DNA of 64,000 nucleotides from the NCBI GenBank assembly GCA_034432155.1, contig DAOUCP010000035.1:83036-147035 (forward strand), written 5' to 3'. The position numbers and the translations under genes are program-made. Source of the stretch: Anaerolineae bacterium. GTDB taxonomy: Bacteria > Chloroflexota > Anaerolineae > Epilineales > Epilineaceae. Shown here in pieces: positions 1,029 through 56,300 of the stretch (position 1 is its first letter; every line of letters starts with the position of its first letter). Under the pieces are notes generated by a model. It did not search any database. It saw only the letters and a program-made list of their open reading frames with translations, and was not told where the DNA came from.

Positions 1029-4000
1029 ATGGCCGCCACCGTCGTCATGGCCAGCTTCACCCACCTCCACGTGCACAGTGAGTACAGCCTGCTCGACGGC
1101 CTCATCCGCCTGCCCGAGTTGGCTCGCGAGGCCAGGCAGGCGGGCTTCCCGGCGTTGGCGTTGACCGATCATGGCGTTATGTATGGCGCAGCGCGCTTTT
1201 ACCACGAGGCACAAGAGGCCGGCATCAAGCCCATCCTTGGCTGCGAGCTGTATGTGGCACGCCGTCTGCGCACCGACCGTCACCCGACCCGCGATCGGCG
1301 GAGCTTCCACCTCACGGTGCTGGCCGAGAACGAGACCGGTTACCGCAACCTGTTGCAGTTGGTCAGTCGCGCCCAGCTCGAGGGCTTCTACTACAAACCC
1401 CGCGTTGATCGCGAGCTCGTGCAGCGGTACGCCGAGGGTCTCGTTGTCCTATCCGGTTGCTTGCAGGGTGAGCTGCCCCAGGCTCTGAAGGACGGCGATG
1501 AGGCAACCGCTCGCCAGACCCTCGCCTGGTATCGAGATGTATTCGGCGATCGCTACTACCTGGAGTTGCAGGACCACAACCTGGACGAGCTAGCAACGGT
1601 CAACCGCGGCCTCTTGGCACTGGCGCGGGAGTTCGAGGTGCCCCTTGTCGCCACCAACGACGTCCACTACCTCCGCGCCACGGACGTGGACGCCCACGAG
1701 GTGCTCATCCAGTTGCAGTGGAAGTCCACAACCCAGGGACGCGAACGGCGCGGCTACGGCCCGACCTATCACCTGCGGTCCGCCGACGAGATGGCGGCCT
1801 TGTTCGGCCACGTGCCGGAAGCGCTGGCGAACACCATGGTCATTGCCGAGCGCTGCAACGTCGATCTGCGCTTTGGGGAGCGCCGGCTGCCCGACTTTCC
1901 GCTGCCCGAGGGTCAAACGGCGGACAGCTATCTGCGACAGCTCTGCGAAGCAGGCGCCATGGAGCGCTACGGCGCGGTCAGCGAGGTCATTCGCGAGCGC
2001 CTGGATCGGGAACTGGCCACCATTGCCGCCATGGGCTTCGCAACCTACTTCCTGATCGTCTGGGACCTTTGTCGGCACGCTCGTGAACGCGGCATTTGGT
2101 ACAACGTGCGCGGCAGCGGCGCCGGGTCCGTCGTCGCCTACGCGTTGCGCATCGCCAATATCGATCCCCTGGCCCACGGACTGATCTTCGAGCGGTTCTT
2201 GAACCCCGCCCGGGTGTCCATGCCCGACATCGATCTCGACCTGGCCGATGATCAGCGCGACGAGCTGATTCGCTACGCCCACGAACGGTACGGCCAGGAT
2301 CATGTCGCTCAGATCATCACCTTCGGCACCCTGGGGGCACGAGCCGCAATCCGAGACGCCGGCCGGGCACTCGAACTGCCGCTCAGTTTGGTGGATCGCA
2401 TCGCCCGTATGATCCCAGCCATCCCGGGCAAGCCATGCTCCCTCGATCAGGTGCTGACGCCGGCGGCGGCCGACGACGAAGACAGCTTCTTCAGCGCCGA
2501 ACTGGCCGAAGCAGTGCATTCGGATCCCGATGTTCGACGCCTGGTGGAGAGCGCCCGCAGCCTCGAAGGCCTGGCGCGCCATGCCTCCACCCACGCTGCC
2601 GGCGTGGTGATCACTGACCGGCCAATCATCGAGTACCTGCCCCTGCACCGCTCCACACACGGCGAGGGGGATCGATCGGGCCTGCCGGTGACCCAGTACG
2701 CCATGAAGGACATCGAGCGCCTGGGCCTGTTGAAGATCGACTTCCTCGGGCTCTCGACCCTCACCGTGCTGCGCCGGGCCGCCGAGCTGGTGGCCGAGCA
2801 CCATGGGGTGTCCATCCGCTTGGAGAGCATACCGTTGGATGACCCGGCCATCTACGAGCTCTTGGGAAGTGGCAACGTGACCGGCGTTTTCCAGGTGGAA
2901 AGCGCGGGCATGCGCCAGATGCTCCGCGAGATGCAGCCGCGAGCCTTCGAGCACGTGACGGCAGCGCTGGCGCTGTACCGTCCCGGGCCGATGCGCTTCA
3001 TTCCCGACTACATCCGCCGCATGCACGGCCAGGAGGAAGTCACGTACCTGCACCCGGCGCTCGTGCCCATCCTTGCGGAAACGTACGGCATTCTCATCTA
3101 CCAGGAGCAAATCATCCGCATCGCCCAGGAGCTGGCCGGCTACGAGCCCGGCAAGGCAGACCTGATCCGCCGCGCGGTCGGCAAGAAGAACCAGGCTGAG
3201 CTACTGAAGCATCATGACGCCTTCGTCGAGGGGGCAACCGAGCGCGGCATCGAGCGCCAGGATGCGGAGCGGATCTTCGAGTTGATCACCAAGTTCGCCC
3301 GTTACGGCTTCAACAAGGCGCACGCCGCCGACTACGCCATGATCGTCTGTCAGACGGCGTGGTTCAAGGCCCGCTACCCGATCGAGTACATGACGGCGCT
3401 CTTGTCCGTGGACCGCCACAATACCGACAAGGTGGCCCTGATTGCCACGGACTGTGCCACCAACGGCATCCGCATCCTGCCGCCAGACGTCAACCAGAGC
3501 CAGCTGGACTTTACTGTTGAGGCACTTCCCCACGATGGCTCCGCTGAGCCGCGCCGGGCAATCCGCTTTGGCCTGGGGGCCATCAAGAACGTAGGCGACG
3601 CCGGCGCGCAAGCCATCCTCGCCGGTCGTGGCGACAGGCCGTTCGCCAATCTTGACGACCTCTGCCGCCGCGTCGATCTCCGCGCCATCGGCAAGCGCGC
3701 CCTGGAGCCGCTCGTACGGGCTGGCGCGCTTGACTGCCTTGGCAGTCGCGACGGCATTCTGGAGCTCTTGGACCGCATCATCAGCCTAAGTGACACCTAC
3801 CATCACGCCAGCGCGGTGGGTCAGATGTCCCTGTTTGGCGATGAGATCGCGCCGGCACTCCCCTCGTTGCTCCCCGAGATCACAAAAGGCCCGGGCGATG
3901 TTCGCCAGCACCTGCAGTGGGAAAAGGAGCTCACCGGGCTCTACCTCTCCGACCATCCCCTCCATCGGGTGGCGGCTGCCCTGCCGCAGGACGTCACGGT

Positions 4001-4619: not shown

Positions 4620-7600
4620 TCCTCCATCGCCGTCTGCTCATCGTTGTCCCGCTTGCGCTGGCCACCCTCGGGCCGTCTTTGGCCGCGGGCAAGCCATCTC
4701 GAGCCGTCGCCCGGGCCCTCGACCCATCCCTGGCCGCGGGCAAGCCATCTCGAGCCGTCGCCCAGGCCCTCGACCCATCCCTGGCCGCAGGCGAGGCATC
4801 CCGGGCCATCGCCCAGGCCCTCGACCCATCGCTAGCGACGCATCCAGCCTGGCTGCTTGCCGAAGAGCCGCTGCCGGTGGTGGTTGCCTTGCGCGGGGAA
4901 ACGGCCTTCGACCGCTATCAGCGCGCACAGGAAGCCACGCCCGGCATCACCACGGCGCGAGAGCAAGCGCGAGCACGCGACGAGGCCTTCGACGCGCTGG
5001 CCGCTCTGCAGGCGCCGGCCCGAGAGGCCATTGTCGAGACAGGGGCCACCATTGTGAGCACCTACGATGCCGCCATGAACGGCTTCCTCGTCTGGGCGAT
5101 ACGGCGCCAGGTTCTGGCCATGGCCGCCGCACCAGGCGTCGAGCGCATCTACCGGGCGCCGGAACATGTTCCGGCACTGGCCAACGCCGTGCCCCTCGTG
5201 GGTGGCGAAGCAGCCCGGGAGCAGCTTCACCTGAGCGGCAAGGACGTCACCATCGCCATCGTCGACACCGGCATCGACTACACCCACTTGTCCCTGGGCG
5301 GCAGCGGCCGGGCTCGGGATTTCCAGGAGAACAACCCACGCACCGTGGAACCGCGCTCGTTCCCCACCGAGAAGGTCATCGGTGGCTACGACTTCGCCGG
5401 TACTTACTACGTGGGCGGCAACATGCCTACCGCCGACGCCGATCCACTGGACGAGAACGGCCACGGCAGCCACGTGGCGGGCATCGCCGCTGGCATGACC
5501 GGCAACCCTAAGGTCTTTCACGGCATGGCCCCCGACGCCAAGCTCATCGCCCTCAAGGTCTTCGGCGCCCGGGGCGGCACCAACCTGGTCATCGATGCCG
5601 TGGAATGGGCCATCGAGGCCAACATGGGCCGCCGCATCAAAGGCATTTGCCAGATGCCCGACGGCGGCGACTGTCGTGTTGACGTACTGAACATGAGCCT
5701 GGGGGCCGCCTTCGCCTCGGACGTTCTGGAGCAGCAAGGCGTGATGCGCCGGGCGCTTGAGGCAGGCATCGTGGTCATCGCCGCCGCCGGCAATGACGAG
5801 GACGTGCCCTTCATCACCGGCGCCCCCGGTGCTTCCGACGTCGTGGTCAGCGTGGCCAACACCTACCCCAGCGGCCAGAAGGCTGACGTGGTGCAGGTGA
5901 GCCACGACGGTGTCACCGAGGATCTGGAGGCTCTGGAAGCCGATCGCAGCTTGTCGCGGCCGATGGCCGAAGTTGGCGAGTTGCGGGCGCCCCTCGGTTG
6001 GTTGGGGCGCGGTTGCCAAGGCGATGCGCCAGCCAGTGACGTCGCCGGCAAGATTGCGTTGATTCCGCGTGGCGACTGTTCCTTCCAGGAGAAGCTGGCC
6101 GCCGCCGCGGCCAACGGCGCTTTGGGTGGCCTCATCTTCAACAACGAGCCCGGCGTCCTGGTCATGGGAGCGTCGCCGCCGAACCCCGTCGCCATCCCGG
6201 CCTATTCGATCGGCCAGGCGGACGGCGAGCGACTGCGCGGGCTGATCGAAGCTGGCACCGAGGTCCGCTGCCGCATGGCCGCCAGCCTGAACAAGACGCT
6301 GGACCGCAGCTACTTGACCGACGTCATCAGCCCATCCAGCAGCCGTGGTCCGAGCCGGATCGGCATTTTGAAGCCCAACTTGAGCGCCCCCGGTACCCAG
6401 ATCGTGGCGCCGTACATCGGTCACGGTGACGAGGGCGTGGCCCTCACCGGCACCTCCATGTCCTCGCCACTGGTCGCTGGCGCGGCAGCCCTGGTGGTCG
6501 AGCGGCTTCGCCAGGATGGCCTGGCGCCGGTGAACCGCCCGCTCAACGACCGAACCAAGCTCACGGCACGGGACGTGGGCGCCATGCTCATGAACTACGC
6601 CGGGGCCACCGTTTGGTGGCGCGACAGCCGGGAGGGGGTGCCGGTGCCGCTAGCCCGGCAGGGAGCGGGCCGCCTCGATGTGCTCTCGGCACTGCGCGGT
6701 CACACCCTTGCTCGTTCCGGCGTCATCGCCGAGATCAACCTTGGTTTCACGGCCGTCGCCGACGCCTGGAGTGGCCGGGCCCCCTTCACCGTGCGCAACC
6801 TGGGTCCGACCGCCAGGCGGTACGCCCTGGGCACGCAGTTCCTGACGACCGAGGAGTCGCAGGCTGGAGTCGAGTACGAGATCGAACCGCAGAGTCTGAC
6901 CGTCGAGCCCGGCCAGGAGCTCGAAGCGAGCCTCCAAGCCTTCGTCGATGCCGGTGCGCTGCGGCCGTACGGCGGCTATGGTGGTGCCAGCTGCCTCAGC
7001 ACCCGCAGCCTGTCCGACACCGAGGTGGATGCCTTCGTCACCATCAACGAAGTCGACGGGCAGGGCCAACCGGTCCCCGGCGGCGACCACCTGCGTCTGC
7101 CCATCTACCTTGTTCCTCGTCCTGCCTCGGACCTGCGCCTGTCGCCGGATCCGGTCTATGTCAGCCCTGCCCTGGGCCAGACGCAGGTGAGCATCGCCAA
7201 CAGCGGTGCGGCGAGCGGTGAGGCAGCGCTCTTTTCGGCCCTGGCGACCGATCCGGTGGAGCAAAACGTCGATCGGCGCATCAACATCGATCTGCTTGCG
7301 GTGCGCCGCGGCAAGGACAGTCGCGGTCAGGGGGTGGTGGAGTTCCTGGTGCATACCGCCGGTGCCCAGGCGGTGCCGCTGGACAGCCAGACGCACATCT
7401 TCGTCGACACCAATCTCGACGGCGAGCTCGATCACGCCATCTTCACCCAAATCGCCCGCAGTGGCCAACAGTACGTCGTGTTCAGTGCTACCAGTCCCGT
7501 CCAGCGACAGCAGCCGATCACGCTGCAGCGCACCATCGCCATGGACTACTACGCCAACGTCGATCTGCAGTCGCGCATCCTCGGCCTGCCGGTCCGGGCG

Positions 7601-22987: not shown

Positions 22988-23892
22988 CTCGACAGCTCGA
23001 CGTCGCGGTGGCCATTGTGAGCTTCGAGACGGCACCGCTGCTCGAGCGGTGCTTGCGCTCCTTGCACGAGGGTGGCTTGGACGGCCTGGCCGCCGGAGTG
23101 TGGGTTTTCGACAACGCCTCGCAAGACGGCAGCGTTGCCGTGGTGCAGCGAGAGTTCCCCGACGTGCACCTCCTGATGAGCGACCGCAATCTCGGCTATG
23201 CCGCAGCGAACAACCAACTGCTGCGCGATGCGGGCTTTGCCGCCGGCGGCAGCGCCCTCGCCCGGCACGCGCTGCTGCTCAACCCCGACACCGTCGTGCC
23301 GCCGGGCGCCATTGCAGAGCTGGTGGCCTTTCTGGAAGCCGAGCCGGATATCGGCGTGGTCGGCCCCAAGCTGGTGCGCGCCGACGGTTCGCTGGACCTG
23401 GCTTGCCGCCGCAGCTTCCCCACTCCGGCCGTGTCCCTCTACCGCTTCGCGGGCCTGTCGCGCCTGTTTCCTGGAAGTCGACGGTTCGGCCGGTACAATC
23501 TGACCTACTTGGACCCAGACCTGCCCGTGGACGTGGACGCTGTGGTCGGTGCTTGCATGCTGGTCCGAGGTACGGCCATCGAGCAGGTCGGCCTGCTGGA
23601 CGAGCGCTTCTGGATGTACGGCGAAGATCTTGATTGGGCGTTCCGGATCCGCCAGGCCGGCTGGCGGGTGGTGTATCGCCCGCAGGTGACGATCCAACAC
23701 GTCAAGCGCGCTGCCGCGGCGCGAAGCTCGCGGGCCAGCTATGAGTTCACGCGTGCGATGTGGTTGTTCTATCAGAAGCACTATGCTCGCACTACGAGCC
23801 GGCCCATCCATTGGCTGATCGTGCTGGCCCTCGCCTTGCGTGGGGGTCGGCGGCTGATCGCCGAGATGCGTGCTGCCCGGAGTGGTCCGTGA
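22984..23892 (+). CDS. Glycosyltransferase family 2
   Basis: VAIVSFETAPLLERCL...VFDNASQDGS...NLGYAAANN fits the GT-A fold. The GTG start overlaps the selB stop (GTGA). The stop overlaps the next start (GTGA). Confidence 0.75.
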   Translation: MTRQLDVAVAIVSFETAPLLERCLRSLHEGGLDGLAAGVWVFDNASQDGSVAVVQREFPDVHLLMSDRNLGYAAANNQLLRDAGFAAGGSALARHALLLNPDTVVPPGAIAELVAFLEAEPDIGVVGPKLVRADGSLDLACRRSFPTPAVSLYRFAGLSRLFPGSRRFGRYNLTYLDPDLPVDVDAVVGACMLVRGTAIEQVGLLDERFWMYGEDLDWAFRIRQAGWRVVYRPQVTIQHVKRAAAARSSRASYEFTRAMWLFYQKHYARTTSRPIHWLIVLALALRGGRRLIAEMRAARSGP

Positions 23893-25319
23893 AGCGTGAT
23901 GCCCGTTGTCGCCGCCTTTGGCTGGAGCGACTGTCGCAGCTGGCGCTCGACCTCCTTGGCTTCGCCCTGGGCATTTGGCTGGCCTACGCGGTGTACCTCC
24001 GGACGGTGGTGCAGGATGCGACCGCGCCCCCCAGCGGCTTTGGGGAGTACGGCGTCGAAGTGGGACTCGGCTACCTGGTGCTGGTGCAAGTTCTCACCCT
24101 CTCGGTGGTGTTCTTCAGCGCCCGGCTTTACCACCAGCCGCGAGGAGTGTCGCGGGTGGATCTGGCGGCGCACATCCTGCGGGCCGTGTCGATTGGGATT
24201 CTCCTATCCATGGCCGTGATCAGCCTGGTGTTGCCCAGACTGGAGGTCTCGCGTCGCATCCTGGTCTACGACTGGCTTCTCACCTTCGCTCTGGTCCTCG
24301 GGCTGCGTCTTGTTCACCGGTCGGTATGGAGCAGCATTCGAAAGCGCGGCATTGGTTGCGACCGCGTGCTGGTGGTCGGAGCCGGTACCGAGGCGCAGGA
24401 CCTGCTGACGCGTATCCAGGCCCGGCCCGCCTTGGGCTACCAGGTGGTGGGCGTGGTGGCCGATGTGCCACGCTTGTCCCGCGTCCGCGGCGTGCCGATC
24501 GTCGGCCGCACGAGCCAGCTCGCGGACCTGGTCGAGCGCCTGGCGGTGGATGAGGTTCTGATTGCCCTGCCGGAGCCGTCGCGGCAACAGCTGCTGGAAC
24601 TTACGAGCCAGTGTTCGCGCGAAGGTCTGTCCGTCCGCATCTATCCCGACGTGTTTCAGATCCTCGCCAGCGAGCTGCGCATGGGGCACCTGGATGGCTT
24701 GCCGCTATTAACGATGCACGACGTGGCACTCAGCGGCTGGCGTCGATCGTTGAAGCGCTTGATCGACATCGCCTTCAGCGGCACCGCCCTAGTGCTGCTC
24801 TCGCCGCTCATGCTCCTCGTCGCCATCCTGGTGAAACTGGACTCGCCGGGCCCGGCCTTCTACGTGCAGGAACGCATGGGGCTGGACGCGCGCCCCTTTC
24901 CGATGCTGAAGTTCCGCACCATGCGGGCCGATGCCGAGCGGGATTCGGGCGCCGTCTGGGCGGTACGCGAGGATCCGCGGCGCACCCGCATTGGCCGCTG
25001 GTTGCGGCGAACGAGCATCGACGAACTGCCGCAGCTCATCAACGTGCTCCTCGGTCACATGAGCGTAGTCGGGCCGCGCCCCGAACGGCCCGAGTTCGTG
25101 CGCGAGTTCCAGCGTCAGATCCCGCGTTACATGGAGCGGCATCGCGAGAAGTCAGGCATCACCGGCTGGGCGCAGGTGAACGGGCTGCGGGGCAGCACTT
25201 CAATTGCTGAACGCACGAAATATGACCTATACTACGTTGAGAACTGGTCCCTTCTGTTTGACTTTCGCATCATGGCACTGACAGTCCTCCAGTTCTTCCG
25301 CGATCCCAACGCTTACTGA
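23889..25319 (+). CDS. Polyprenyl (undecaprenyl)-phosphate glycosylphosphotransferase, WbaP/WcaJ type (exopolysaccharide priming enzyme)
   Basis: N-terminal TM helices. C-terminal bacterial sugar transferase domain LKRLIDIAFSGTALVLLSPLMLLVAILVKLDSPGPAFYVQERMG...IDELPQLINVLLGHMSVVGPRPERP. In-frame GTG at 23889 overlaps the GT2 stop. Confidence 0.8.
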   Translation: MKRDARCRRLWLERLSQLALDLLGFALGIWLAYAVYLRTVVQDATAPPSGFGEYGVEVGLGYLVLVQVLTLSVVFFSARLYHQPRGVSRVDLAAHILRAVSIGILLSMAVISLVLPRLEVSRRILVYDWLLTFALVLGLRLVHRSVWSSIRKRGIGCDRVLVVGAGTEAQDLLTRIQARPALGYQVVGVVADVPRLSRVRGVPIVGRTSQLADLVERLAVDEVLIALPEPSRQQLLELTSQCSREGLSVRIYPDVFQILASELRMGHLDGLPLLTMHDVALSGWRRSLKRLIDIAFSGTALVLLSPLMLLVAILVKLDSPGPAFYVQERMGLDARPFPMLKFRTMRADAERDSGAVWAVREDPRRTRIGRWLRRTSIDELPQLINVLLGHMSVVGPRPERPEFVREFQRQIPRYMERHREKSGITGWAQVNGLRGSTSIAERTKYDLYYVENWSLLFDFRIMALTVLQFFRDPNAY

Positions 25320-25364
25320 CGTCTGACAAGGGCCGAACGCAGGCGGCGAGAGACCGTCGCTGTG

Positions 25365-25544
25365 GACGCCGGGCGGAGAGGAATCGCCGGTCTCGACGCC
25401 GGACGGACGGGAATCCCCGCTGTCGACGGCGGCCCGCGAGGGAGCGCAGGGGTTGACGCCGGACGGACAGGAATCCCTGGTGTCGACGGCCGGCAGAGAG
25501 GCAGCGCGGGTGTTGACGGCGGGCGAAGAGGAAGCTAGGATTAG
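25365..25544. repeat. 6 x 30-nt tandem array (two alternating unit subtypes) between the sugar-transferase stop and hrcA
   Basis: Unit starts fall at 25365, 25395, 25425, 25455, 25485 and 25515. One forward frame (GTG 25362 to TAG 25536-25538) reads a clean decapeptide repeat DAGRxGIxxV / DGGxRGSAGV. Confidence 0.65.
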
Positions 25545-25607: not shown

Positions 25608-26690
25608 GTGCCATGGGCCGCGGCCCGACGGGGAACGATGATTGCAGGCCCTCCGCCTTCGCGCGAGCTGACCGAGCGGCAAACCCGCATCCTCATGCTG
25701 GTGGTGCAAGAGCACATTCGGACCGGCCAGCCAGTGCCGTCTGCCGCTCTGGCCCGGCGTAGCGACGTTGCCGTAAGCCCGGCTACCGTCCGCGCCGAGA
25801 TGGCAGCGTTGGAGGAGCTGGGGTTGCTCACCCATCCCCATACCTCCGCCGGCCGGGTACCGACCGTTGCCGGGTATCGGTACTTCGCCGAGCACCTGCT
25901 CCGGCGGGGCACCCTGTCGGCCCAGGAACGGCGGGCCATTCGGGCCCGCTTTCTGGCCGCCGGCTGGGACCCGGAGCGCTGGATGCAGATCGCCGCGGAT
26001 ATGATCTCTCAGCTCTCGGGAGTGGCGGGGCTAGCCGCCGCTTTGCCCAGTATTGGCGCAGCGCTACGGCGCCTCGAGTTGGTGGACCTAGGCGGTGGCG
26101 TGGTGCAGATCGTCGTCGTCCTCGACGACGGACAGGTGCGTCAGGTGCGCTGGTGCCCGCAGCACGAATATGACCAGGAGCTCCTCGACCGGTTCAGTCG
26201 GCGGGTCAACGAGCACGTGGCCGGCTTCGCCCAGACCGATTGGACCGGGGCCGGGTGGACAACGCCTTTCCAGGAGGAGGCTGCCCTTGCCATTCGAGAG
26301 CTGGTGAGCAGCCCCCGTCGCCGTGCCGTCCGCCCACCGCGGCTGTACCACTCGGGGTTGGCGCGCATTGTCGAGGAGCCCGAGTTGGCGGTGAGCGGCC
26401 AGCTGCGCCACGTGGTCTCCGTCCTGGAGCATGGCGAGGGGCTGGACATCTTGGTGACCAGGCTGCGCCTTCAGGGTGCCCACGTCTTCATCGGCGGCGA
26501 GCCGCCACTGGAGGAGTGGCCCCCCATTACGCTCATCCTGTCGCGCTTCGGAGGTCGAACCCGTCAGGATGGGCTCGTGGGTGTGGTGGGCCCAACGCGG
26601 CTGCCCTACGAGCGTGCCGTGCCGGCGGTCGAATACGTGGCCGAACTGATGACCCATTTGCTGGCCGGCCAACCGGTCATGCCGGCGTGA
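25608..26690 (+). CDS. hrcA: Heat-inducible transcription repressor HrcA
   Basis: N-terminal winged HTH LTERQTRILMLVVQEHIRTGQPVPSAALARRSDVAVSPATVRAEMAALEELGLL. The C-terminal domain is typical of HrcA. An alternative start is the ATG at 25638. Confidence 0.85.
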   Translation: MPWAAARRGTMIAGPPPSRELTERQTRILMLVVQEHIRTGQPVPSAALARRSDVAVSPATVRAEMAALEELGLLTHPHTSAGRVPTVAGYRYFAEHLLRRGTLSAQERRAIRARFLAAGWDPERWMQIAADMISQLSGVAGLAAALPSIGAALRRLELVDLGGGVVQIVVVLDDGQVRQVRWCPQHEYDQELLDRFSRRVNEHVAGFAQTDWTGAGWTTPFQEEAALAIRELVSSPRRRAVRPPRLYHSGLARIVEEPELAVSGQLRHVVSVLEHGEGLDILVTRLRLQGAHVFIGGEPPLEEWPPITLILSRFGGRTRQDGLVGVVGPTRLPYERAVPAVEYVAELMTHLLAGQPVMPA

Positions 26691-30909: not shown

Positions 30910-33348
30910 ATGCTTGCGCCACGAAGGGGGAGCGCGAAGGAACGGGAGAGACTCCCGTGGCTGTGGCGCGGAGGCGCGGTGACGCTCGTGGTTGCCGCCT
31001 TCTTGGCCCGGTCCTACCGGCTGGATACCCAGAGTCTCTGGTACGACGAGGGCCTTAGCGTCGCGCTCGCGGGGCGCAGTCTGGTCACCATCGCCCGCAA
31101 CGCTGCTGCCGACATCCATCCGCCGCTGTACTATGTCGCGCTGGCCGGGTGGACGCGCTTCGTTGGCTCGAGCGCCTTCGCCGCCCGCTTTCTGTCCGTC
31201 GTCGCCGGCACCTGTCTGGTGGCGCTGACCTGCGCCCTTGGCCGTCGCCTATGGTCCCCTGTCGTAGCTCTGGGCGCGTGCTTGCTGGCCGCCATCTCAC
31301 CGTACCTGATCTGGTACAGCCAGGAAGCCCGGATGTACATGCTGGTCGCCACCCTGGGGGCCGCGGCCCTGTGGCTGAGCCTGGATCTCCTGGCCGCTCC
31401 GGCGTCCGCGAGCCGAGGGCACGGCAGTCGCTGGTTGGCCCTCCTCGCCCTAGAGACCGCCAGTTTGTACAGCCACTACCTGGTCGGAGCGAGCGTCGCC
31501 GCCGCCCTGAACGTCACGGCGCTGCTCGCGATCCGAGCCGGGAACTCCGGCCGCCAAGCGGGATGGTGCCGGCCCGAGACCCGGCTTGCCCGTCGGACGC
31601 CAAGGGGGTGGCGGCCCGACACGCTGCTCGCCCCACGGACGCCAAGGCGGTGGCGCCTCGACACCCTGCTCGCCCCCCAGACGGCGCGCCGGGGGCACAT
31701 TCGCGCGGCCGCCGACGCGGAGCCATCGGAGGGCGCTCTTGTGGCTCGGACGGCCTGGCTCCGGCGCTGGCTCGGGGTGCAACTGGCAGCCTTCCTATTG
31801 TTCGCGCCTTGGCTGTGGTGGGCCTGGCCGACGCTGGCCCAGTGGCCAGCCACCAGCTCGCCCTTCGGCATCCGCTATGCCCTGGCCGAAGCCTTGCGGG
31901 TGTTCTCCCTCGGCGCGCGACGCCCGGACCAGGCCGCTGCCTGGACCTGGCTTTGGGCGGCAACCGCGGCCCTGGGACTTGTCAGCCCTGGGCGCCGCGG
32001 CCAGCGCCTCGGGCCGTGCCTGGCACTCACCTGGGCGATCCTGCCGCCCCTGGGCCTGTGGCTGGCGGGGCTCTCGCGGCCAGCCTGGGAGGCCAAGCAA
32101 CTCATCGCTGGCGCGCTCGGCTTCGAGCTGCTCGCGGCAGCCGGCGCCGTCCATTTGGCTCGCTTGGCCGGCGGCGGTCTGGGCGTTGGAGCCCCACGGA
32201 ACCTTGCCGCGGCGCCGGCCGCGCTCGACAGGGCCCTGCGCTCGGCGGTGGTCGGCGGTGTGCTCCTGGCTGCTCTCGGGTTGCCCCGGCTCGCAAGCCT
32301 GCTTGCCACGTGGCACGACCCACGGCTGCAACGGGACGACTACCGGGGCATTGCGCAGACGGTGGCGCAATGGGCAGGCCCCGGCGATGCAGTGCTGCTC
32401 AATGCACCGACGCAGATTGAGATCTTCGAGTACTACGATCGCCGCGCCCATCCCACCTACCCGCTGCCTCGCTCGCGGCCGCCCGACCGAACCGCGACCG
32501 AGCTCGAACTGGGCGCCATCGCCAGGCGGCACCGGGACTTGTTCGCCGTGTTGTGGGCGACCGAGCAGAGCGACCCGGATGGTATCGTGGAGCACTGGCT
32601 CAACCGCCAGCGCTACAAGGTCTTCGATCGCTGGTTCGGCAACGTGCGGTTGGCGCTGTGGGCCGAGGCGCGCCAGCCACTCCGACCTCGGGCGCTCGGC
32701 GCGGGCGTCGATTTTGGCGGCCAGCTGTGTCTGCGCCGGCTGGCACACTCGCCGCTCCGTGTGCCACGGGGCGAGATCCTCACTCTCGACGCGTGGTGGC
32801 AGGCGCTTCGCCAACCTGAGGCTGACTACGTCGTCTTCGTGCAGCTCCTGGATGCCTCGGGGCGTCTGGCCGCGCAGCGGGACATGCCCCCTGGCGGTGG
32901 ATCGGAACGGACCTCCCGCTGGCTCGCCCACGCGCCGGCGACGCCGTCAGCCACCGCCGGCGACGCAAGCACATGCGGGCTGGCGACTACCGCCGGCACC
33001 CGCGAGGCAGCCGCCGGCGGGAAAGCGACTGCCACCGCCGCCCGCGAGGGAACCGCAAGCCCGATCGCGACTGCCACCGCCGCCCGCGAGGCAACGGCCA
33101 GTGGAACTGCGACCGCCGTCGCTGTGCATGATGCTGGGGCCAGCCAGGAGGCGACGGCTGTCACCCGCGGCTGGCACCTGGACCGAATCGGCCTTCGGCT
33201 GCCGCCGGACCTGGCACCCGGACGCTACACCCTCATCCTGGGGCTTTACCATCCGACCACGCGCCAGCGCCTGGCGCCGGACTCGGCGGCCACCCGGTCG
33301 CCCGGTGCGCCGGATGCGCTGACCATCGGCAGCGTCATCGTGCCATGA
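30910..33348 (+). CDS. Polytopic membrane glycosyltransferase, GT39/GT83 (PMT_2 / ArnT-like, protein O-mannosyltransferase family)
   Basis: Loop-1 motif SLWYDEGLSVALA...DIHPPLYY. Many TM helices. Large C-terminal soluble domain. Inserted 2 x 42-nt repeat and Ala/Thr-rich low-complexity stretch. Confidence 0.75.
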   Translation: MLAPRRGSAKERERLPWLWRGGAVTLVVAAFLARSYRLDTQSLWYDEGLSVALAGRSLVTIARNAAADIHPPLYYVALAGWTRFVGSSAFAARFLSVVAGTCLVALTCALGRRLWSPVVALGACLLAAISPYLIWYSQEARMYMLVATLGAAALWLSLDLLAAPASASRGHGSRWLALLALETASLYSHYLVGASVAAALNVTALLAIRAGNSGRQAGWCRPETRLARRTPRGWRPDTLLAPRTPRRWRLDTLLAPQTARRGHIRAAADAEPSEGALVARTAWLRRWLGVQLAAFLLFAPWLWWAWPTLAQWPATSSPFGIRYALAEALRVFSLGARRPDQAAAWTWLWAATAALGLVSPGRRGQRLGPCLALTWAILPPLGLWLAGLSRPAWEAKQLIAGALGFELLAAAGAVHLARLAGGGLGVGAPRNLAAAPAALDRALRSAVVGGVLLAALGLPRLASLLATWHDPRLQRDDYRGIAQTVAQWAGPGDAVLLNAPTQIEIFEYYDRRAHPTYPLPRSRPPDRTATELELGAIARRHRDLFAVLWATEQSDPDGIVEHWLNRQRYKVFDRWFGNVRLALWAEARQPLRPRALGAGVDFGGQLCLRRLAHSPLRVPRGEILTLDAWWQALRQPEADYVVFVQLLDASGRLAAQRDMPPGGGSERTSRWLAHAPATPSATAGDASTCGLATTAGTREAAAGGKATATAAREGTASPIATATAAREATASGTATAVAVHDAGASQEATAVTRGWHLDRIGLRLPPDLAPGRYTLILGLYHPTTRQRLAPDSAATRSPGAPDALTIGSVIVP
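31594..31677 (+). repeat. 2 x 42-nt in-frame tandem repeat (RTPRGWRPDTLLAP / RTPRRWRLDTLLAP) inside the GT39-like gene
   Basis: Direct repeat read in the sequence. Confidence 0.6.
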
Positions 33349-33382
33349 GCGCCCAGTCTGGCAGGGCTGCCGGGCACCGACG

Positions 33383-33411
33383 TTGCGCCCCTCGGCAGCG
33401 GCTGCCATAAT
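33383..33411 (+). promoter_or_regulatory. Putative promoter of yhhQ-queF: -35 TTGCGC (33383-33388), 17-nt spacer, -10 CATAAT (33406-33411), flanked by two GGCAG(n)GCTGCC palindromes
   Basis: Isolated AT-rich hexamer 24 nt upstream of the ATG at 33435. Palindromes at 33360-33371 and 33394-33406. Confidence 0.4.
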
Positions 33412-33434
33412 CGCTTGGCCAAACAGGACACCTC

Positions 33435-34184
33435 ATGGCCAATCGCGACAAGCTCCCCACCGCCGGTGCGGCGCGGCCATACCGGTTCTTGAGCACCATC
33501 ACCGCCTTGTTCGTCACGGCCTTGATCACGGCCAACATCCTGGCGGTCAAGCCGGTTGAGCTCGGCAAGCTCGTGTTCCCGGCGGCTGTCGTCATCTTTC
33601 CTTTGAGCTATCTCTTTGGCGATGTCCTTACCGAGGTCTACGGCTACGCCCGCGCCCGCGAGGTTATCTGGACGGGCTTCGCCTGCAACCTAATCGCCGT
33701 GCTGGCGATTGCCATCGCCGGCGCGCTGCCGGCGGCGACCTTCTGGTCCGAAGGGCAGAATGCCTACCGTCTCATCCTTGGCGCCACGCCCCGTATCTTG
33801 GCGGCATCCTTCGCCGCTTACCTCGTCGGGGAGTTCCTGAACGCCTATGTGTTGGCTCGGCTCAAGGTAATCACCGGTGGCCGCTGGCTGTGGAGCCGGA
33901 CCATCGCAAGCACTCTTCTCGGCCAGCTTGGCGACTCCGCGGTCTTCATCACCGCTGCCTTCGGCGGGGTCTGGCCAACCGACCGGCTAGGCGGGGCGGT
34001 TATCACCCAGTGGCTTCTCAAGAGCGGCTACGAAGCCCTCGCCACGCCGCTCACATACGCGGTGGTGAACTTTCTCAAGCGGCAGGAAGTCGAGGACTAC
34101 TTCGACCGCCACACCGACTTCAGCCCCCTCCGGCTGCGTCGGCTGAGCCGTGCCTCCCGGCCCGAGAAAGGAGTCCCGCCATGA
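33435..34184 (+). CDS. yhhQ: Queuosine precursor (preQ0/preQ1) transporter, YhhQ/DUF165 family
   Basis: 6-TM protein LFVTALITANILAVKPVELG...FPLSYLFGDVLTEVYGY. It is collinear with E. coli YhhQ and is immediately followed by queF with an ATGA overlap. Confidence 0.75.
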   Translation: MANRDKLPTAGAARPYRFLSTITALFVTALITANILAVKPVELGKLVFPAAVVIFPLSYLFGDVLTEVYGYARAREVIWTGFACNLIAVLAIAIAGALPAATFWSEGQNAYRLILGATPRILAASFAAYLVGEFLNAYVLARLKVITGGRWLWSRTIASTLLGQLGDSAVFITAAFGGVWPTDRLGGAVITQWLLKSGYEALATPLTYAVVNFLKRQEVEDYFDRHTDFSPLRLRRLSRASRPEKGVPP

Positions 34185-35134
34185 ACCAGGGCACAACACC
34201 CTCACGGAAGCGAATGGGCGTTCCATCGCCTGAGCAGCGCTCGCGGCCCGAGGGGCCCCCGCGAGCCATCCGCGCCATGGCAGGTACGAAGGACCGGCGC
34301 TCCAGTCCGCCCGCCGGGGCGGGCAGACCCGAACGGAGAAGCAGCAAGGACCGACGCTCCGGTCCGCCCGCCGGTGCGGGCAGACCCGAACGGAGAAGCA
34401 GCAAGGACCGACGCTCGGGTCCGCCCGCCGGGGCGGGAAGACTCGCACGCGGAGGCGGCAAGGAGCGCCGGTCGGGCCCGCCAGTCGGCACGGGCAAGCC
34501 CCGACGAGCGCCTCAGGAACGCACCGGCGCTGGGTCCGTCCGCCAGCCGCCGCCGCAGCGCGCCCCACGACGCGGCCCGGCATCGCGATCCGAGGGCCAA
34601 GCCGACTTCCCAAGACCCGGCCACCGGCGGTCATCCCCGGCAGCCGGGTCGCAGCGGTCGCGCTGGCAAGCTTCCCCCGCTCCGACCGCCGAAGCGTCGC
34701 CAAGCGCGGAGCCAGGCGCACCGCCCACTGCGCCGGCGCGTGAGGACCTTCTTTCCGGTCTTACCCTGTTGGGATCGCCCACCACGGGCCCGACGCGGCA
34801 GCTGGAGACCTTCGCCAACCTCCACCCCGAACGGCCGTATGTCGTCACCCTGAGCTGTCCGGAGTTCACTTGTCTATGCCCGGCCACCGGTCAGCCTGAC
34901 TTCGCGCGACTGACCATTCGCTACGTGCCCAACGAGCGCATCCTGGAGAGCAAGTCCTTGCGCCTCTACCTTTGGTCATTCCGCAACGAAGGCCACTTTC
35001 ACGAGCACGTCACCAACCGCATCTTGGACGACCTCGTGGCCGCCCTCGCGCCCCGATCGTGCGAGGTCATCGGGCGCTTCCATGTCCGCGGCGGCATCGC
35101 CATCACCGTGGAAGCCCGCTACCCAAGCCCGTAG
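34181..35134 (+). CDS. queF: NADPH-dependent 7-cyano-7-deazaguanine reductase QueF (type I) with an about 190-aa low-complexity N-terminal extension; the true start may be internal
   Basis: C-terminal 130 aa is LETFANLHPERPYVVTLSCPEFTCLCPATGQPDFARLTIRYVPNERILESKSLRLYLWSFRNEGHFHEHVTNRILDDL...GGIAITVEARY. It carries the catalytic Cys and the QueF motif E(S/L)K(S/A)hK(L/Y)(Y/F/W), here ESKSLRLYLW. The ATG at 34181 overlaps the yhhQ stop. No ATG or GTG lies between 34181 and the QueF core. Confidence 0.7.
   Translation: MNQGTTPSRKRMGVPSPEQRSRPEGPPRAIRAMAGTKDRRSSPPAGAGRPERRSSKDRRSGPPAGAGRPERRSSKDRRSGPPAGAGRLARGGGKERRSGPPVGTGKPRRAPQERTGAGSVRQPPPQRAPRRGPASRSEGQADFPRPGHRRSSPAAGSQRSRWQASPAPTAEASPSAEPGAPPTAPAREDLLSGLTLLGSPTTGPTRQLETFANLHPERPYVVTLSCPEFTCLCPATGQPDFARLTIRYVPNERILESKSLRLYLWSFRNEGHFHEHVTNRILDDLVAALAPRSCEVIGRFHVRGGIAITVEARYPSP
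34270..34440 (+). repeat. About 3 x 57-nt in-frame tandem repeat (19-aa unit PERRSSKDRRSGPPAGAGR) within the queF 5' extension
   Basis: Units at 34327-34383 and 34384-34440 are near-identical; a partial copy lies upstream. Confidence 0.7.
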
Positions 35135-35282
35135 CCAGGGCGCCTGCCGCAGGGGATCCCGGCGTGGCCGCGCCCTGCGGCCGTCCGCCGCATTTGAGGT
35201 TCCCTTGTCAGCGCTCACTCGCCCTCTGCCACCACCGACACTGCCTGGCCCGCGCTCTCTCGCCCTGCGGCCGTCCGCCGGC

Positions 35283-37127
35283 CTACTCCCACTCGATGGT
35301 GCCCGGCGGCTTGGTGGTAACATCCAGTGCCAGCCCGCTCACCCCCGGCAGGGTTAAGAGATCGCGCCGCAGCTCGGCGAGCAGGGCGTCGGGCAGCCGA
35401 GCCGGTGCAGCGGTCATGGCGCGCTCCGAAAGCACCGGCCGGACGACCACCAGCTCAGTGCCCTGGCCATCGAGCGACAGGGGAACGAGCAGCGTCGGGC
35501 ACTGCCAGATCGAGTCGTAGACGCCATGGCGACGCAATCCCGCATGGACGATGGCGTCCGCTTCGCGCAGCAGGTCCAGCCGCTCGCGGGTCACAGTGGC
35601 CGCGCGCGGCTCGGCGTGCCGCGGAGCGGCCAGGCCTAGATTCCACAGCGCCCGGTTGACGCCCGGCACCTCGCGGAAGATGCGCCCGGCGAGGCGGAGA
35701 AGATCGTCCCAGGGCAGGTTGCCGGTGAGCAGCACCGGATGTTCATAGCTCCGCAGGTCGGCCTTGACGCCGACCGAGCGGATGGGCAGCGCCAGCGCCT
35801 CCACACCGACCTCGACTGCCAGGCGCGCCAATGCCGGCTCCAGTTCCGCAAAGCCGTGCCGATCGGGCTCGCCGGACGAGCAGAGCAGCCTCACCGCGAG
35901 GCCAGGACCTGGAAATGGGTGGCGCCAGACGGCCGCACGCGGCATCCCGATCCTCTCACCCAGTTCCCGAACCTCTACCTTGTACAGGTCGGCCAGGGGC
36001 TCCACCACCCGGCCAGCGGCGATCATTTCGGCGACGATGGGCACGCGGTTGTGATGGGTCTTGATGACATCGGCTCGCGCGGTGCCGCCCGTCTCGATGG
36101 TGTCCGGATAGATGGTTCCCTGGCCGAGCAGGAAGTGCTCGATCCCCAGCCTGCGCGCCTCGCGCTCGAACACGGCGATGAACGTCTCGCCGATGCGGCG
36201 CCGCTTCTCCTCGGGCTCGACAACGCCCGCGAGAGCCGACAGAAACTCCGCGCTGGCATCGACGAAGACGAGGTGCCGGTCCAACCCCAGCTCCGATAGC
36301 ATCGCGAGGACCTCGCGACTCTCATTCTTGCGCAAAAGGCCGTTGTCGATGTGCAGGAGCTGCAGGCGGTCAGGCCCCAGCGCTCGGCTCAGCAACATCG
36401 CCGCCACCGTCGAGTCCACCCCGCCTGAGACCAACAGGAACACGCTTTGCTCGCCGACTTGCGCTCGCACGCGCTCCACCGCCTCCTCGAGGTAGCGCTC
36501 CAGGGTCCAAGTGGGTCGACAGCCGCAAATGCGCAACACGAAGTTGCCCAGCATCTCGGCGCCATGAACGGTGTCGTCCACCTCGGGATGGAACTGAAAG
36601 CCATAGCGACGCAGCCCGTCGTGGGCAATCGCCGCATTCCGCTGCTTGGGGCTCGCGTTCTCGCCTAGCGTGGTGTAGCCAATCTCGCGAAACCCCGGGC
36701 CCAGCTCGGTGACCGAGTCATAGTGGCTCATCCAGACCGTCTCGACCGGGCCCAAGCCCTCGAAGAGTGGATGGGGGGTCACATGCAAGTCGGCGGGCCC
36801 CCACTCGCGGCCCCCGTGCACTACCCGGCCGCCATAGTGCTTGGCGATCTCCTGGTGGCCGAAGCAAAGCCCTAGGATCGGCACCGGCAATTCGTAGATC
36901 GCCTTGTTGTATCCGGCATCCTCATCAAATGCCGAAAGGCTCGGACTGCCAGAGAGCACAATGCCGCGATAGCCGACAAAGGTTTGCAAGGGGGCTTCGG
37001 GTTGCTGAATCTCGGCTAGGACATGAAGCCGTCGGATCTGGGTGGCGATCAGGTGGGCATACTGGCCGCCAAAATCGACGACGGCGATCCTGTCGTGACG
37101 GCTGTCGCGCCTGCGACCCTGGGACAT
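35283..37127 (-). CDS. guaA: GMP synthase (glutamine-hydrolysing)
   Basis: GATase IAVVDFGGQYAHLIA...LGLCFGHQ. ATP-PPase P-loop SGGVDSTV. C-terminal ...KPPGTIEWE. An extra copy of about 90 aa of the dimerisation-domain motif (PIRSVGVKADLRSYEHPV...) is inserted before the canonical one. Confidence 0.9.
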   Translation of the reverse strand: MSQGRRRDSRHDRIAVVDFGGQYAHLIATQIRRLHVLAEIQQPEAPLQTFVGYRGIVLSGSPSLSAFDEDAGYNKAIYELPVPILGLCFGHQEIAKHYGGRVVHGGREWGPADLHVTPHPLFEGLGPVETVWMSHYDSVTELGPGFREIGYTTLGENASPKQRNAAIAHDGLRRYGFQFHPEVDDTVHGAEMLGNFVLRICGCRPTWTLERYLEEAVERVRAQVGEQSVFLLVSGGVDSTVAAMLLSRALGPDRLQLLHIDNGLLRKNESREVLAMLSELGLDRHLVFVDASAEFLSALAGVVEPEEKRRRIGETFIAVFEREARRLGIEHFLLGQGTIYPDTIETGGTARADVIKTHHNRVPIVAEMIAAGRVVEPLADLYKVEVRELGERIGMPRAAVWRHPFPGPGLAVRLLCSSGEPDRHGFAELEPALARLAVEVGVEALALPIRSVGVKADLRSYEHPVLLTGNLPWDDLLRLAGRIFREVPGVNRALWNLGLAAPRHAEPRAATVTRERLDLLREADAIVHAGLRRHGVYDSIWQCPTLLVPLSLDGQGTELVVVRPVLSERAMTAAPARLPDALLAELRRDLLTLPGVSGLALDVTTKPPGTIEWE

Positions 37128-53302: not shown

Positions 53303-56300
53303 ATGGTGGCCTTCGCCAGCGCCATGCTGGGGACGCTGGCCGTCCCGCAGACGTCCCACCTTGCCGCCCAGGATGCACGCGGCATTCCCCCAGGAGCGCG
53401 TGGTGCTGCGCCGGAGGCACCTGTCGTGCCCCCGCTGCAAGTGCGCGCTGCTGCCCCGGAGGCACCCATCGTGCCCCCGCCACAAGTGCGCGCTGCTGCC
53501 CCGGACGCAAGGGGCCTGCCGCCCTGGCAGCTGCCTGGGCTTGTCCCTGGCGCGAAGAGCTTGTCTCCCGGACCCGCGAGGGGACGAGCAGCGCTGACAT
53601 GGAGCACCGGGAACCGTGGCCCAGACGCCATCACGAGCTGGCTCCTCGAGCTGGCCCAACCGTCCATCGCCGCTCAGCTGTTGGGCACGGGCCAGCCGCA
53701 TGAAGAAGGGAGGCTCGCCGGCCATGGGCAGCGAATCGAGCTGCGGCCAGCGCCCCAGGTGCTCGAGCTCTGGCGCCGACGACTGGTCCAGGAGCAGGCA
53801 CCCTATGTCTCGGCTGTCCAGGCCGCAGGCGGGCAGGTCATTGACTCATACCAGGTGGTGGTGAATGGCCTGCTGGTCCACGGCAGCCAGGCGCTGGCCA
53901 CCAAGCTGGCAGAGCTCGATGGTGTGGCTCGCATGTGGCCCGTGGTGCCGGTTGCGCCTCTGCTTGCCGAGTCGATGCCGCTCATTGGGGCCGATCGCGT
54001 CACCCAGGAGCTCGATCTCGACGGTGAGAACGTTGTGGTGGCCATCGCCGACTGCGGGATCGATTACTACCATGCGGCCTTCGGCGGCTCGGGCAGGCTG
54101 CGGGACTACGATCCGGACGACGAGAACGTAGTCGAACCCGGCACCTTCCCTACCGCTCGCGTCGTGGGAGGCTACGATTTCGCCGGCCAGCGTTACTCGC
54201 CCAACTGCGCCAGCCTGCCCTTTCGCTTGCCCGACTGCCACACCGAGCCCAGCCCGGACCCTGATCCGTTGGAGCCGCGAGAGCTGAACCACGGGACCCC
54301 CGTGGCCTCCATCCTGGCCGGACAAGCCACGGAGCGAGTGCCGGCTGGTGTAGCGCCCGCAGCGAAGCTGGTGGCCCTCAAGATCATGGGCAATCCCATC
54401 GGTGCACCGCCGGCCACCGATCTCCTGCCGAGCGCCCTGGAATGGGTAGTGGCCCACAATCTTGGCCTCGCCGTGCCGGGCATCGCACCGCCCCTGGCCA
54501 TCGACGTCCTCAACCTGAGCGTCGGCTATCCGTGGGCTGGTGGGCTGCCACCGATCGAGCGGGCCATCGACGCCGCGGTGGCCACTGGCATCACTGTCAT
54601 CGGGGCCAATGGCGACGGCGGTGACGTTCCGTTCATTGCCGGTCAGCCAGCGGCGGCGTCGCAGGTGCTGGCCGTTGGCGCTTCCGTCCCACCTGGCCGC
54701 GCCGAACAGGTCTTCGGCATTCGCGCCGAGTGGCCGGCCGGCGACGAGACGCGTCGCCTGACAGCCCCAGCCCTGGAAGCGGACTTCACGCCGACGTTGC
54801 GTCAGACAGGACCCATCACCCTGCCACTGGCTTACTACGGCCTGGCCTGTTCGGACGCAGAAGGCAGACCCGAGCCGCCCGCCCAGGATGTCGCCGGCCG
54901 CGTGGCACTCATTGCCCGTGGCACGTGCTCGTTCTATGACAAGTTGTGGAACGCCGCCAAGGCGGGTGCCCGAGCGGCCATCGTCTTCAGTGACGACCGC
55001 GATCCGGTGGTCATGTCGTGCCAGGCTCCCTCGGACTGCAGCCATGCACCGCCCCTGCCGGCGGTGATGATCCAGCGTCGGCCCGGCGTCACGCTGGCGG
55101 ACCTCTTGGCGGTCCAAACGCCGGTTACGGTGGGCATGGCAGCCGACCTGCTGGTCGATGAGGAGAACCTGACGGACATCGCAGCCAGTTACTCCAGCCG
55201 TGGCCCGGCCCGGAGCGGGGCCCTGAAGCCGCAACTCGTGGCTCCGGGCGCGGCCATCTTCGCGGCACGGGCCGGCGGCGGCACCTTCGGCGAGCGTCGC
55301 AGCGGCACGTCCATCGCTGCCCCGTTCGTCGCCGGGGCAGCTGCCGTTCTGCGCCAGCGCAGCCAGCGGGAACGGCTCCACTTGGAGCCCTTGGACATCG
55401 GCGCGCTCCTGGCCAACTACGCCGATGGCGTGGTGCGCATCGGCAACGCCGACACCGGTCCGGCGGCCCCGCCCGCGCTGGCAGGAGCAGGCCGTCTGAA
55501 TGTCTGGCGGAGTGCGCGCGGCGAGCTGCTGGTGCGCGCCGAGGCGAACGAGGGCATCAGCGACCTGGGCCTGGGTCTTGTCCACGTCGGCGATTCTCCG
55601 CTGACGCTTGTACGCCGGCTCACGGTGCGCAACCTGACGTCCCGGGCTCTTGCCTACCGCACGGACCTGGCGCTGCAGTATCCCGGCGAGGACGAGCGGC
55701 GGGGAGTGGAGTGGAGCGCGCCGGCCGAAGTGCGCTTGCCGCCGGGCGGGAGCGTACCTCTGACTGTCACTGTTCGGCTCGACCCGCTCGCTTTGCGACC
55801 GTGGGCCCTGCGCGGCTTCGGGACTCCTCTCGACACGGCCGTAGTGCAGCGACAGGAAGTCGATGGCAGCTTGATGCTCCGGCCGCTGGGCGACTCGGCG
55901 GGCGAGGACCGGACGGTACGCGTGCCCTTCCACGTTCTTCCCCGCCCCCATGCCTGTGTCGTTGGCGAGCCGCAAGGGTCGCTGCTCTTCCTTGCCCGTG
56001 GCCAGGCTCGATCCGAGACATGGCGCAACCTGTGCCCCGCGCCCGGCAGTGTGGAAGCCTTCCGCATTCTCGGACTGGACGGCGCCGAAGCCACCACACC
56101 GGACGCCGCGCGCAGCGACATCGATGCCGTGGCCGTTCGGTATGCCCCGAATCCGAATCGCGAGGGCGATTACCTCCTCGAATTCGCTATTCGGACCCGC
56201 GCGCCGAAGCGCCTGCCCCTGGAGGCAGAGCTCCTTGTCTACCTCGACATCGAGGCGGACGGAGCCTTCGACCGTGTGATTTTCAATCGTCTCGGGCGGC

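Follow-up and report, generated by a model that had tools for sequence, protein, structure and literature searches.

Two protein families form the background to the system described here: YhhQ, through its E. coli member, defines a family of preQ0 transporters, and QueF carries out the reduction of preQ0 to preQ1 (PMC5372724). Type I QueF is represented by the Bacillus subtilis YkvM/QueF protein (PDB 4F8B, 165 aa), and type II by the V. cholerae/E. coli YqcD form (PDB 3BP1, 290 aa), the N-terminal half of which is a second folded T-fold (QueF_N). The QueF of Synechocystis, Slr0711, has been cross-linked to RNA in vivo, though the substrate of the enzyme is a free base (PMC12475003). A full-text search of the literature returned no description of disordered tails or N-terminal extensions on QueF. 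Here we report on a 64,000-nt stretch (hereafter the window) of contig DAOUCP010000035.1 from an Anaerolineae bacterium of the Chloroflexota (assembly GCA_034432155.1), in which a queF reading frame begins at the stop codon of yhhQ and carries 186 codons of repeat-containing, low-complexity sequence ahead of its catalytic core. In our assessment this sequence is probably translated, giving an otherwise ordinary QueF with a disordered basic tail.

By sequence, the protein has the catalytic part of a genuine type I QueF. The core (aa 187–317; 34739..35134, forward strand) is recognized by the Pfam QueF model (PF14489) at aa 239–315 with an e-value of 7e-33 and 113 bits against a cutoff of 27.3, and residues 187–316 align with residues 5–139 of B. 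subtilis QueF (E 2.7e-36). It shares with the latter the xELxGxTLLG, CPxTGQPD, ESKSxKLY and FHE motifs, the last three in the intact forms CPATGQPD, ESKSLRLYLW and FHEH, and is likewise modelled as a single T-fold domain with high confidence. In an alignment of 46 sequences every invariant column is retained, including C233, P234, T236, G237, Q238, P239 and D240 of the CPxTGQPD motif, which holds the catalytic cysteine and the conserved Asp; E256, K258, S259, L260 and Y263 of the ESKS motif, the QueF motif of consensus E(S/L)K(S/A)hK(L/Y)(Y/F/W), are also conserved. The one deviation in this motif is a conservative change at position 261, which is R here and K in at least 90% of relatives. With the core intact and its codon usage normal (z = +0.4), the gene does not appear to be decaying. 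What sets the protein apart from B. subtilis QueF is about 183 additional N-terminal residues, which are basic, disordered and without homologues. QueF proteins have a median length of 155 aa in 150 unbiased cluster representatives, in agreement with the usual range of about 120–165 aa that the initial annotation had given for type I; the open reading frame (ORF) from the canonical start encodes 317 aa, about twice the usual size, with a catalytic part that is single-domain. In length it resembles type II QueF (317 vs 290 aa), and its C-terminal half is homologous (E 1e-8). However, the N-terminal half of the type II enzyme is folded, whereas that of the window protein has neither a fold nor a Pfam match. 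Assignment to type II was rejected on these grounds: the QueF_N model is matched only weakly and within the core (aa 236–288, 20.3 bits, below the cutoff of 25.6), and residues 1–186 are without a Pfam match or predicted structure.

The queF ORF (34181..35134, forward strand, 317 codons plus stop, by frame translation) is open from an ATG at 34181 to the stop at 35132–35134, and the TGA of yhhQ (34182–34184) overlaps that ATG as ATGA, as had been stated earlier. A Shine-Dalgarno sequence, GAAAGGAG (34166..34173, forward strand, read from the sequence), stands 7 nt ahead of it. The initial annotation regarded 34181 as the only in-frame ATG upstream of the core; this needs correction, as the ATGs at 34214 and 34277 share its frame and, like it, precede the repeat array described below. 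Its related claim, that no ATG or GTG occurs nearer the core and that only a TTG or CTG inside the TLLG region could serve instead, was borne out: between 34278 and 34765 (codon 33 to codon 196) we found no in-frame ATG, GTG, TTG, CTG, ATT, ATC or ATA, and a start-codon scan left CTG 34766 and TTG 34769 (34766..34771, forward strand), both inside LTLLG, as the only internal candidates. Neither has a Shine-Dalgarno sequence close enough to work; the nearest run of purines is GAGGA at 34742–34746, 19–22 nt upstream. The residues just ahead of these codons (187–198, REDLLSGLTLLG) match B. subtilis KESELEGVTLLG as well as close relatives (...ELLKDLTLLG, ...EMLSGLTLLG), which argues that this segment is still maintained as protein. 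No alternative start near the core preserves the conserved DLLSGLTLLG segment. Scans of the tract returned no internal promoter and no terminator-like site, and both were dropped as candidates, as were two antisense ORFs across it (33987..34721 and 34120..34497), which show no sign of coding and extend over the 3' end of yhhQ.

The extension itself (codons 1–186; 34181..34738, forward strand) is a strongly basic region dominated by a few residues (R 19%, P 17%, G 13%, A 13%, S 12%), with a net charge of +27 and a pI of 12.0. AlphaFold2 places residues 1–180 entirely in coil with a confidence score (pLDDT) of about 50, against 94–98 for the core, and the region is accordingly predicted to be disordered. 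Searches of Pfam with residues 1–186 gave no match, and a signal peptide or a second domain was rejected there, as we observed neither a hydrophobic segment nor a fold. Likewise, the region does not belong to the RGG/RG-box or SR-like classes: it holds one RGGG and several RRS(S/G), without an RGG array or a run of RS dipeptides, and its likeness to such RNA-binding regions is one of basic disordered character only.

Embedded in the extension is a tandem array (34289..34504, forward strand), which Tandem Repeats Finder resolves into 3.8 copies of a 57-nt (19-codon) unit encoding KDRRSGPPAGAGRPERRSS and variants thereof, with 84% matches and 0% indels. This confirms the low-complexity tract with a 57-nt repeat described earlier, with alanine to be added to its Arg/Ser/Pro/Gly-rich composition. 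The first two copies differ at 3 positions per 57 nt, copy 3 at 9–10 and copy 4 at 23–24. This gradient of copy identity, as read from the sequence, shows that the array has recently grown at its 5' side and supports the earlier suggestion that the repeat is still expanding. The divergence among copies also has a codon structure. In the queF frame the differences fall at codon positions 1, 2 and 3 in the numbers 8, 9 and 18, and a Nei-Gojobori comparison of copies 3 and 4 gives a proportion of synonymous differences (pS) of 0.60 against a proportion of nonsynonymous differences (pN) of 0.32. The bias is marked in the first 12 codons of the unit (KDRRSGPPAGAG), with a pS of 0.55 against a pN of 0.12 (Fisher p = 0.012); position 3 accounts for 8 of 10 differences there (binomial p = 0.003). 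It is in this frame only that pS exceeds pN, the values for frames +1 and +2 being 0.23 vs 0.45 and 0.40 vs 0.41. Moreover, the 3.8 copies are free of indels despite a divergence of 42% in copy 4. We consider this pattern suggestive of coding; it should be noted, as a point on the other side, that the substitutions are few and that the unit was split post hoc. A dispersed repeat element was also considered and rejected, as the unit is confined to the array and its 26-nt core was found nowhere else in the 64 kb.

Comparison with related loci bears on how the gene junction might have been reshaped. The best matches to the core come from metagenome-assembled genomes (MAGs) of Chloroflexota/Anaerolineae. 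No sequence closer than 72–78% core identity was recovered from GTDB species genomes, JGI metagenomes or a set of 5.8 billion protein clusters, and none of the relatives at 72–78% shares the tract. Among the closest relatives the yhhQ→queF order persists, and queF starts at or beside the yhhQ stop (ATGgcTGA in L016, GTGgcTGA in L018 and TGAcATG in L162), and in L002 and L005 the two genes overlap. The distance from the body of yhhQ to the QueF core is about 450–600 nt greater in the window than in close relatives. Given that relatives start queF at or beside the yhhQ stop, the window keeps the ancestral coupled start, with extra sequence lying between start and core. On the other side of the junction the C-terminus of YhhQ (..RLRRLSRASRPEKGVPP*, 34135–34184) extends 13 aa beyond that of relatives, implying that the R/S/P-rich low-complexity tract begins within the 3' end of yhhQ and spans the boundary between the genes. 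Start-codon turnover seems to be common at this junction. At about 2985–3010 of L082 there is an ATT, preceded at 8 nt by GAGGGAG, exactly where P0001 and P0003 have ATG, and in L078, a Spirochaetia MAG, the queF frame contains no ATG, GTG or TTG from the preceding stop to LETF (2941–3045).

Tails on QueF are not confined to the window. A first protein search was biased towards long, compositionally similar proteins (all matches were at least 174 aa) and was replaced by a set of unbiased representatives, in which clean basic tails are rare. The most instructive case for the question of translation is L081/P0005 (73% GC), where a promoter-like site (TTGTGC-17-CATAAT) is followed by GGGGAG, an ATG, a 95-aa RGP-rich tail of net charge +10 and the core. 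Past this ATG the frame has no ATG, GTG, TTG or CTG until codon 122, by which point the invariant LETFPN has been passed; hence L081 can make a complete enzyme only if its tail is translated. In its relative P0006 the tail measures 118 aa. A local alignment of P0005 and P0006 shows 68% identity overall and near-identity across the core, and the tails align poorly and with gaps; despite the many indels between them, a far-upstream ATG is the called start of both ORFs. Together the RGP-rich N-tails of this pair span 95–118 aa with net charges of +9 to +12. A further group (L082, P0001, P0003, P0004) has K/R-rich N-tails of 38–69 aa, and L082 and L163 show a strong Shine-Dalgarno sequence at the far-upstream start of K/R-rich tails of 38–47 aa. 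The tails of the K/R group are less certain, as translation could instead begin at an ATG directly ahead of LSGLTLLG.

Basic tails are also seen at the opposite end of the protein. A sizeable family of QueFs (P0015, P0023, P0032, P0037, P0038, P0040, P0041, P0047 and others) has repeat-containing C-tails of 90–165 aa with net charges of +10 to +15, which end in RRTTKSLGETRTWRKRT and share the conserved final motif ..ERRTTKSLGETRTWRKRT. Such C-terminal tails cannot come from start-codon artefacts. Two of the 50%-identity cluster representatives, P0164 and P0247, are apparent QueC-QueF fusions. Like the tail in the window, all the other tails are basic, and wherever DNA is in hand their GC content is flat across the three codon positions; unlike it in sequence, they show no detectable similarity to it. 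Homology to the RGP tails of P0005/P0006 in particular was rejected, as BLASTP e-values of 0.95–2.4 reflect likeness of composition only. Among close relatives no other N-tail is as long as that of the window, and no other has a 57-nt array as its basis.

Against these indications stands a body of evidence that weighs against translation of the tract. Its GC content at codon positions 1, 2 and 3 (GC1/GC2/GC3) is flat (0.745/0.793/0.734), to be compared with 0.62/0.49/0.82 for the QueF core and typically about 0.72/0.50/0.81 for genes of the window, and its overall GC of 0.757 lies within the 0.70–0.82 of genuine intergenic gaps in the genome. A 3-periodic second-order Markov model trained on 23 window genes gives yhhQ and the core clearly positive scores in the frames in which they are read. 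For the tract none of the six frames reaches a positive score, and that of queF comes last at -0.060 per base; in tandem arrays inside other window genes the host frame still scores best. Synonymous codon usage in the tract gives z = -3.7, or -2.6 without the two youngest copies, where controls in true-frame windows give 0 ± 2 and antisense frames about -3. Rare codons are frequent, with 6 AGA and 8 CGA, AGA making up 1% of Arg codons in the window genes sampled. The queF frame would be open by chance in about 12.5% of shuffles, and over the array none of the six frames is closed. Furthermore, a GC-rich array at 25361–25533, with periods of 30/60 nt in 5.8/2.3 copies, occupies a 288-nt apparent intergenic gap between a sugar-transferase-like ORF (23760..25319) and an hrcA-like ORF (25608..26690), so that a period divisible by 3 is no proof of coding. 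The shuffles, the six-frame comparison and this intergenic array led us to drop the open frame and the divisibility of the period as coding evidence. Lastly, the tract is an orphan: no homologue was found at E <= 0.01 among the 5.8 billion protein clusters, and no tract-like sequence in GTDB genomes and JGI metagenomes, which leaves no orthologue in which conservation could be assessed. As an aside on these statistics, one 564-nt true-frame window within the 23 training genes is a far outlier, with a synonymous-codon z of -9.5, and may be a mis-called region or foreign DNA.

How much these statistics say about the window's tail in particular can be judged from the other extensions. In all five N-extensions for which DNA is available (L081, L082, L162, L163 and the window) GC1/GC2/GC3 is flat, with GC3 far under that of the respective core, which means that a non-coding-like composition is not specific evidence against the tail in the window. 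The initial annotation had named two findings that would speak against a translated extension, namely relatives in which queF starts canonically at the core, and intergenic-like GC3 or codon bias in the extension. Both were in fact made: among 80 GTDB loci the queF ATG lies almost always 9–20 codons ahead of LTLLG, and the composition is as given above. Neither is decisive, however, because the composition is equally flat in L081 and the other N-extensions with DNA, and because the window has no usable core-proximal start that keeps DLLSGLTLLG.

The same annotation had posed, as the other possibility, an internal start preceded by a spacer, and this has to be weighed with some care. On this account an untranslated, repeat-rich and GC-rich spacer has expanded between yhhQ and queF, a short QueF of about 121 aa is made from TTG 34769 (or CTG 34766), and any translation from ATG 34181 is incidental. 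The codon statistics of the tract, intergenic-like and without coding signal in any frame, would then be as expected, as would its absence from most close relatives; the genome has a second GC-rich array in a genuine intergenic gap, and an open frame by chance is, as noted, no rarity. In addition, many QueFs lack the TLLG segment; many with 57–68% identity to the core begin with M(P/A)TxPSKxLETFPN, 8–10 codons before LETF, and TTG 34769, at 11 codons before LETF, is in essentially the same place; the solved QueF structure PDB 5UDG aligns from residue 208 onward only. A start at TTG or CTG is thereby kept viable, but it is the less favoured one: both codons lack a Shine-Dalgarno sequence at working distance, a promoter-like site inside the tract was not found, and DLLSGLTLLG, the 10 residues immediately ahead of the TTG, still matches relatives as protein, which would be unexpected in a leader. 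The Shine-Dalgarno sequence, the ATG at the yhhQ stop, the in-phase frame and the lack of stops would all have to be coincidence, the repeat copies show no indels and differ preferentially at the third codon position in the queF frame, and an equivalent internal start does not exist in L081. We therefore hold a spacer with an internal start to be unlikely; were it correct, queF would rely on a TTG start without a Shine-Dalgarno sequence behind a 560-nt repeat spacer, a matter of local interest only.

Two further explanations appear less plausible still. One is that queF is crippled, having lost its ancestral start on the way to becoming a pseudogene, or that the repeat region is an assembly or sequencing artefact hiding the true start. 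A canonical start is indeed missing where relatives carry one, tandem repeats with 76% GC are hard for assemblers, and the queF of L078 also lacks a canonical start in a sequence set that consists mostly of MAGs. Yet every invariant residue of the 46-sequence alignment is kept and core codon usage is normal, the frame is continuous from the Shine-Dalgarno-backed ATG to the stop, the graded differences between copies are unlike those of a collapsed or duplicated assembly, and the partner yhhQ is intact, making decay or artefact improbable. The other is that the tract is mainly a structured RNA or DNA element, such as a REP-like sequence or a leader or attenuator that regulates queF, and does not code for a peptide. 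Each unit has two small palindromes, GGTCCGCCCGCCGGGGCGGGCAGACC and GGACCG..CGGTCC, which cause the array to fold with z = -3.9 relative to shuffles. On the other side, Pro-Pro-Ala-Gly-Ala-Gly codons are self-complementary by nature. In copy 4 the hairpin is degraded and the encoded KxRRSGPPxGxG is kept, so that the decay of the former with retention of the latter weighs against an RNA-structure account of the repeat. No Rfam family, the preQ1 riboswitch included, was matched at this locus or at 13 related ones, the window has no dispersed copies of the unit, and no terminator-like site was found; we regard such an element as very improbable.

Translation of the tail from ATG 34181 is favoured, short of proof, by a combination of features: the strong Shine-Dalgarno sequence and ATGA coupling, the lack of any other usable start, the codon-structured divergence of the repeats and the precedent of L081. 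In this reading ribosomes that finish yhhQ, or that bind GAAAGGAG, would start at ATG 34181 and run through 186 young, fast-evolving, low-complexity codons before entering the type I QueF domain. The product would be a protein of about 34 kDa, with a normal catalytic core and a strongly basic (pI 12), disordered N-tail. The predicted roles are import of the precursor for YhhQ and, for QueF, the reduction of preQ0 to preQ1, a reaction that uses NADPH in this family and here would supply queuosine in tRNA. We infer not only the translation of the tail but also its origin by in-frame expansion and any function it may have.

The creation of disordered segments by in-frame expansion of tandem repeats is a general phenomenon in bacterial proteins. 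The array in queF resembles such cases in its unit, a multiple of 3, in the graded identity of its copies and in its position at a permissive terminus or loop. The tail probably grew in frame within a short permissive N-terminal segment, through slippage during replication and the duplication in tandem of 57-nt units. In-frame arrays also occur in other genes of the window. Two S8-peptidase-like ORFs carry them just after signal-peptide-like N-termini (4680–4830, 51-nt unit; 53404–53509, 45-nt unit), and a GT39/PMT_2-like ORF (30910..33348) contains two with a 42-nt unit (31565–31683 and 32983–33117). The presence of such arrays in these genes suggests that array growth is a general process in this organism, the genome of which seems to be prone to repeat-driven, low-complexity protein inserts. 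The arrays differ from the tract in that a host-frame codon signal is detectable in them and not in it. The sole array with a period that is not a multiple of 3 is a 43-nt tandem repeat of 2.3 copies at 14–111.

Upstream of the junction lies yhhQ (COG1738/Vut_1; 33435..34184, forward strand; Pfam PF02592, E 4.2e-50), a predicted preQ0/preQ1 salvage transporter with normal codon statistics. Its membership in the YhhQ/COG1738 family is supported by the Vut_1 domain and by adjacency to queF, both here and in 48 related loci, with transport being a prediction. The yhhQ-queF pair fits a two-gene preQ0 salvage module or operon, as judged from its arrangement. A promoter-like site can be read upstream of yhhQ at 33383..33411 (forward strand), with TTGCGC, a spacing of 17 nt, CATAAT and a TG before the latter; this putative site was not called by a consensus promoter scan. 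The window has a GC content of 68%. The 13-mer CTGCCATAATCGC occurs both at 33402–33414, upstream of yhhQ, and at 134–146 of L081, an unrelated metagenome contig, upstream of the RGP-extended queF; in both it is embedded in a promoter-like TTGnGC-17-CATAAT context, and it was found in none of the other loci compared. A riboswitch or structured leader for yhhQ-queF was considered and rejected on negative Rfam results here and in relatives: no Rfam model, those of preQ1-I, -II and -III included, was matched in the window at the gathering threshold, a search at E <= 10 over 33200–35300 gave no relevant match, and 13 related loci were likewise negative.

As to what such a tail might do, it is most likely only weakly constrained, and the weak constraint, orphan status and poor codon usage fit what may be tolerated ballast. 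Nevertheless, the presence of basic QueF tails in several lineages, together with the cross-link of the Synechocystis QueF, hints by analogy at binding of polyanions or RNA. Slr0711 belongs to the same enzyme family, so that a basic tail could conceivably serve to direct the enzyme to RNA; the report of its cross-linking (PMC12475003) does not credit a tail, and the comparison is made at the level of the enzyme family. The link is hypothetical only. A more far-reaching proposal, which we put forward tentatively and consider unlikely, is that basic disordered tails have been grafted repeatedly and independently onto QueF, the instances being the N-tail in the window, the L081/P0006 RGP pair, the K/R group and the C-tails ending in RRTTKSLGETRTWRKRT. 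The suggested cause is that QueF, instead of being a free soluble enzyme, would operate on RNA or close to it. The polycationic tails of the oligomer would then hold QueF on tRNA or on a complex of tRNA with tRNA-guanine transglycosylase (TGT), where preQ1 could be handed directly to the transglycosylase. Under this proposal the 57-nt array might act as a selectable tuning of valency, and the RNA cross-link of the Synechocystis enzyme would also be explained.

If the tail is translated, the locus would present a housekeeping enzyme that has gained a large, disordered, polycationic segment with its catalytic domain unchanged, by tandem duplication in frame at the junction of two translationally coupled genes. 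It would also hold a lesson for annotation, in that compositional statistics point to non-coding sequence where the structure of the gene demands translation, a pattern that recurs in several QueF lineages. The finding concerns a known enzyme in variant form and is a modest curiosity, not a new system. Its value lies in this annotation lesson and in a testable lead connecting QueF with RNA: taken with the RNA-binding cyanobacterial QueF (PMC12475003), the recurrent basic tails suggest that the last soluble step on the way to preQ1 may be tied to tRNA.

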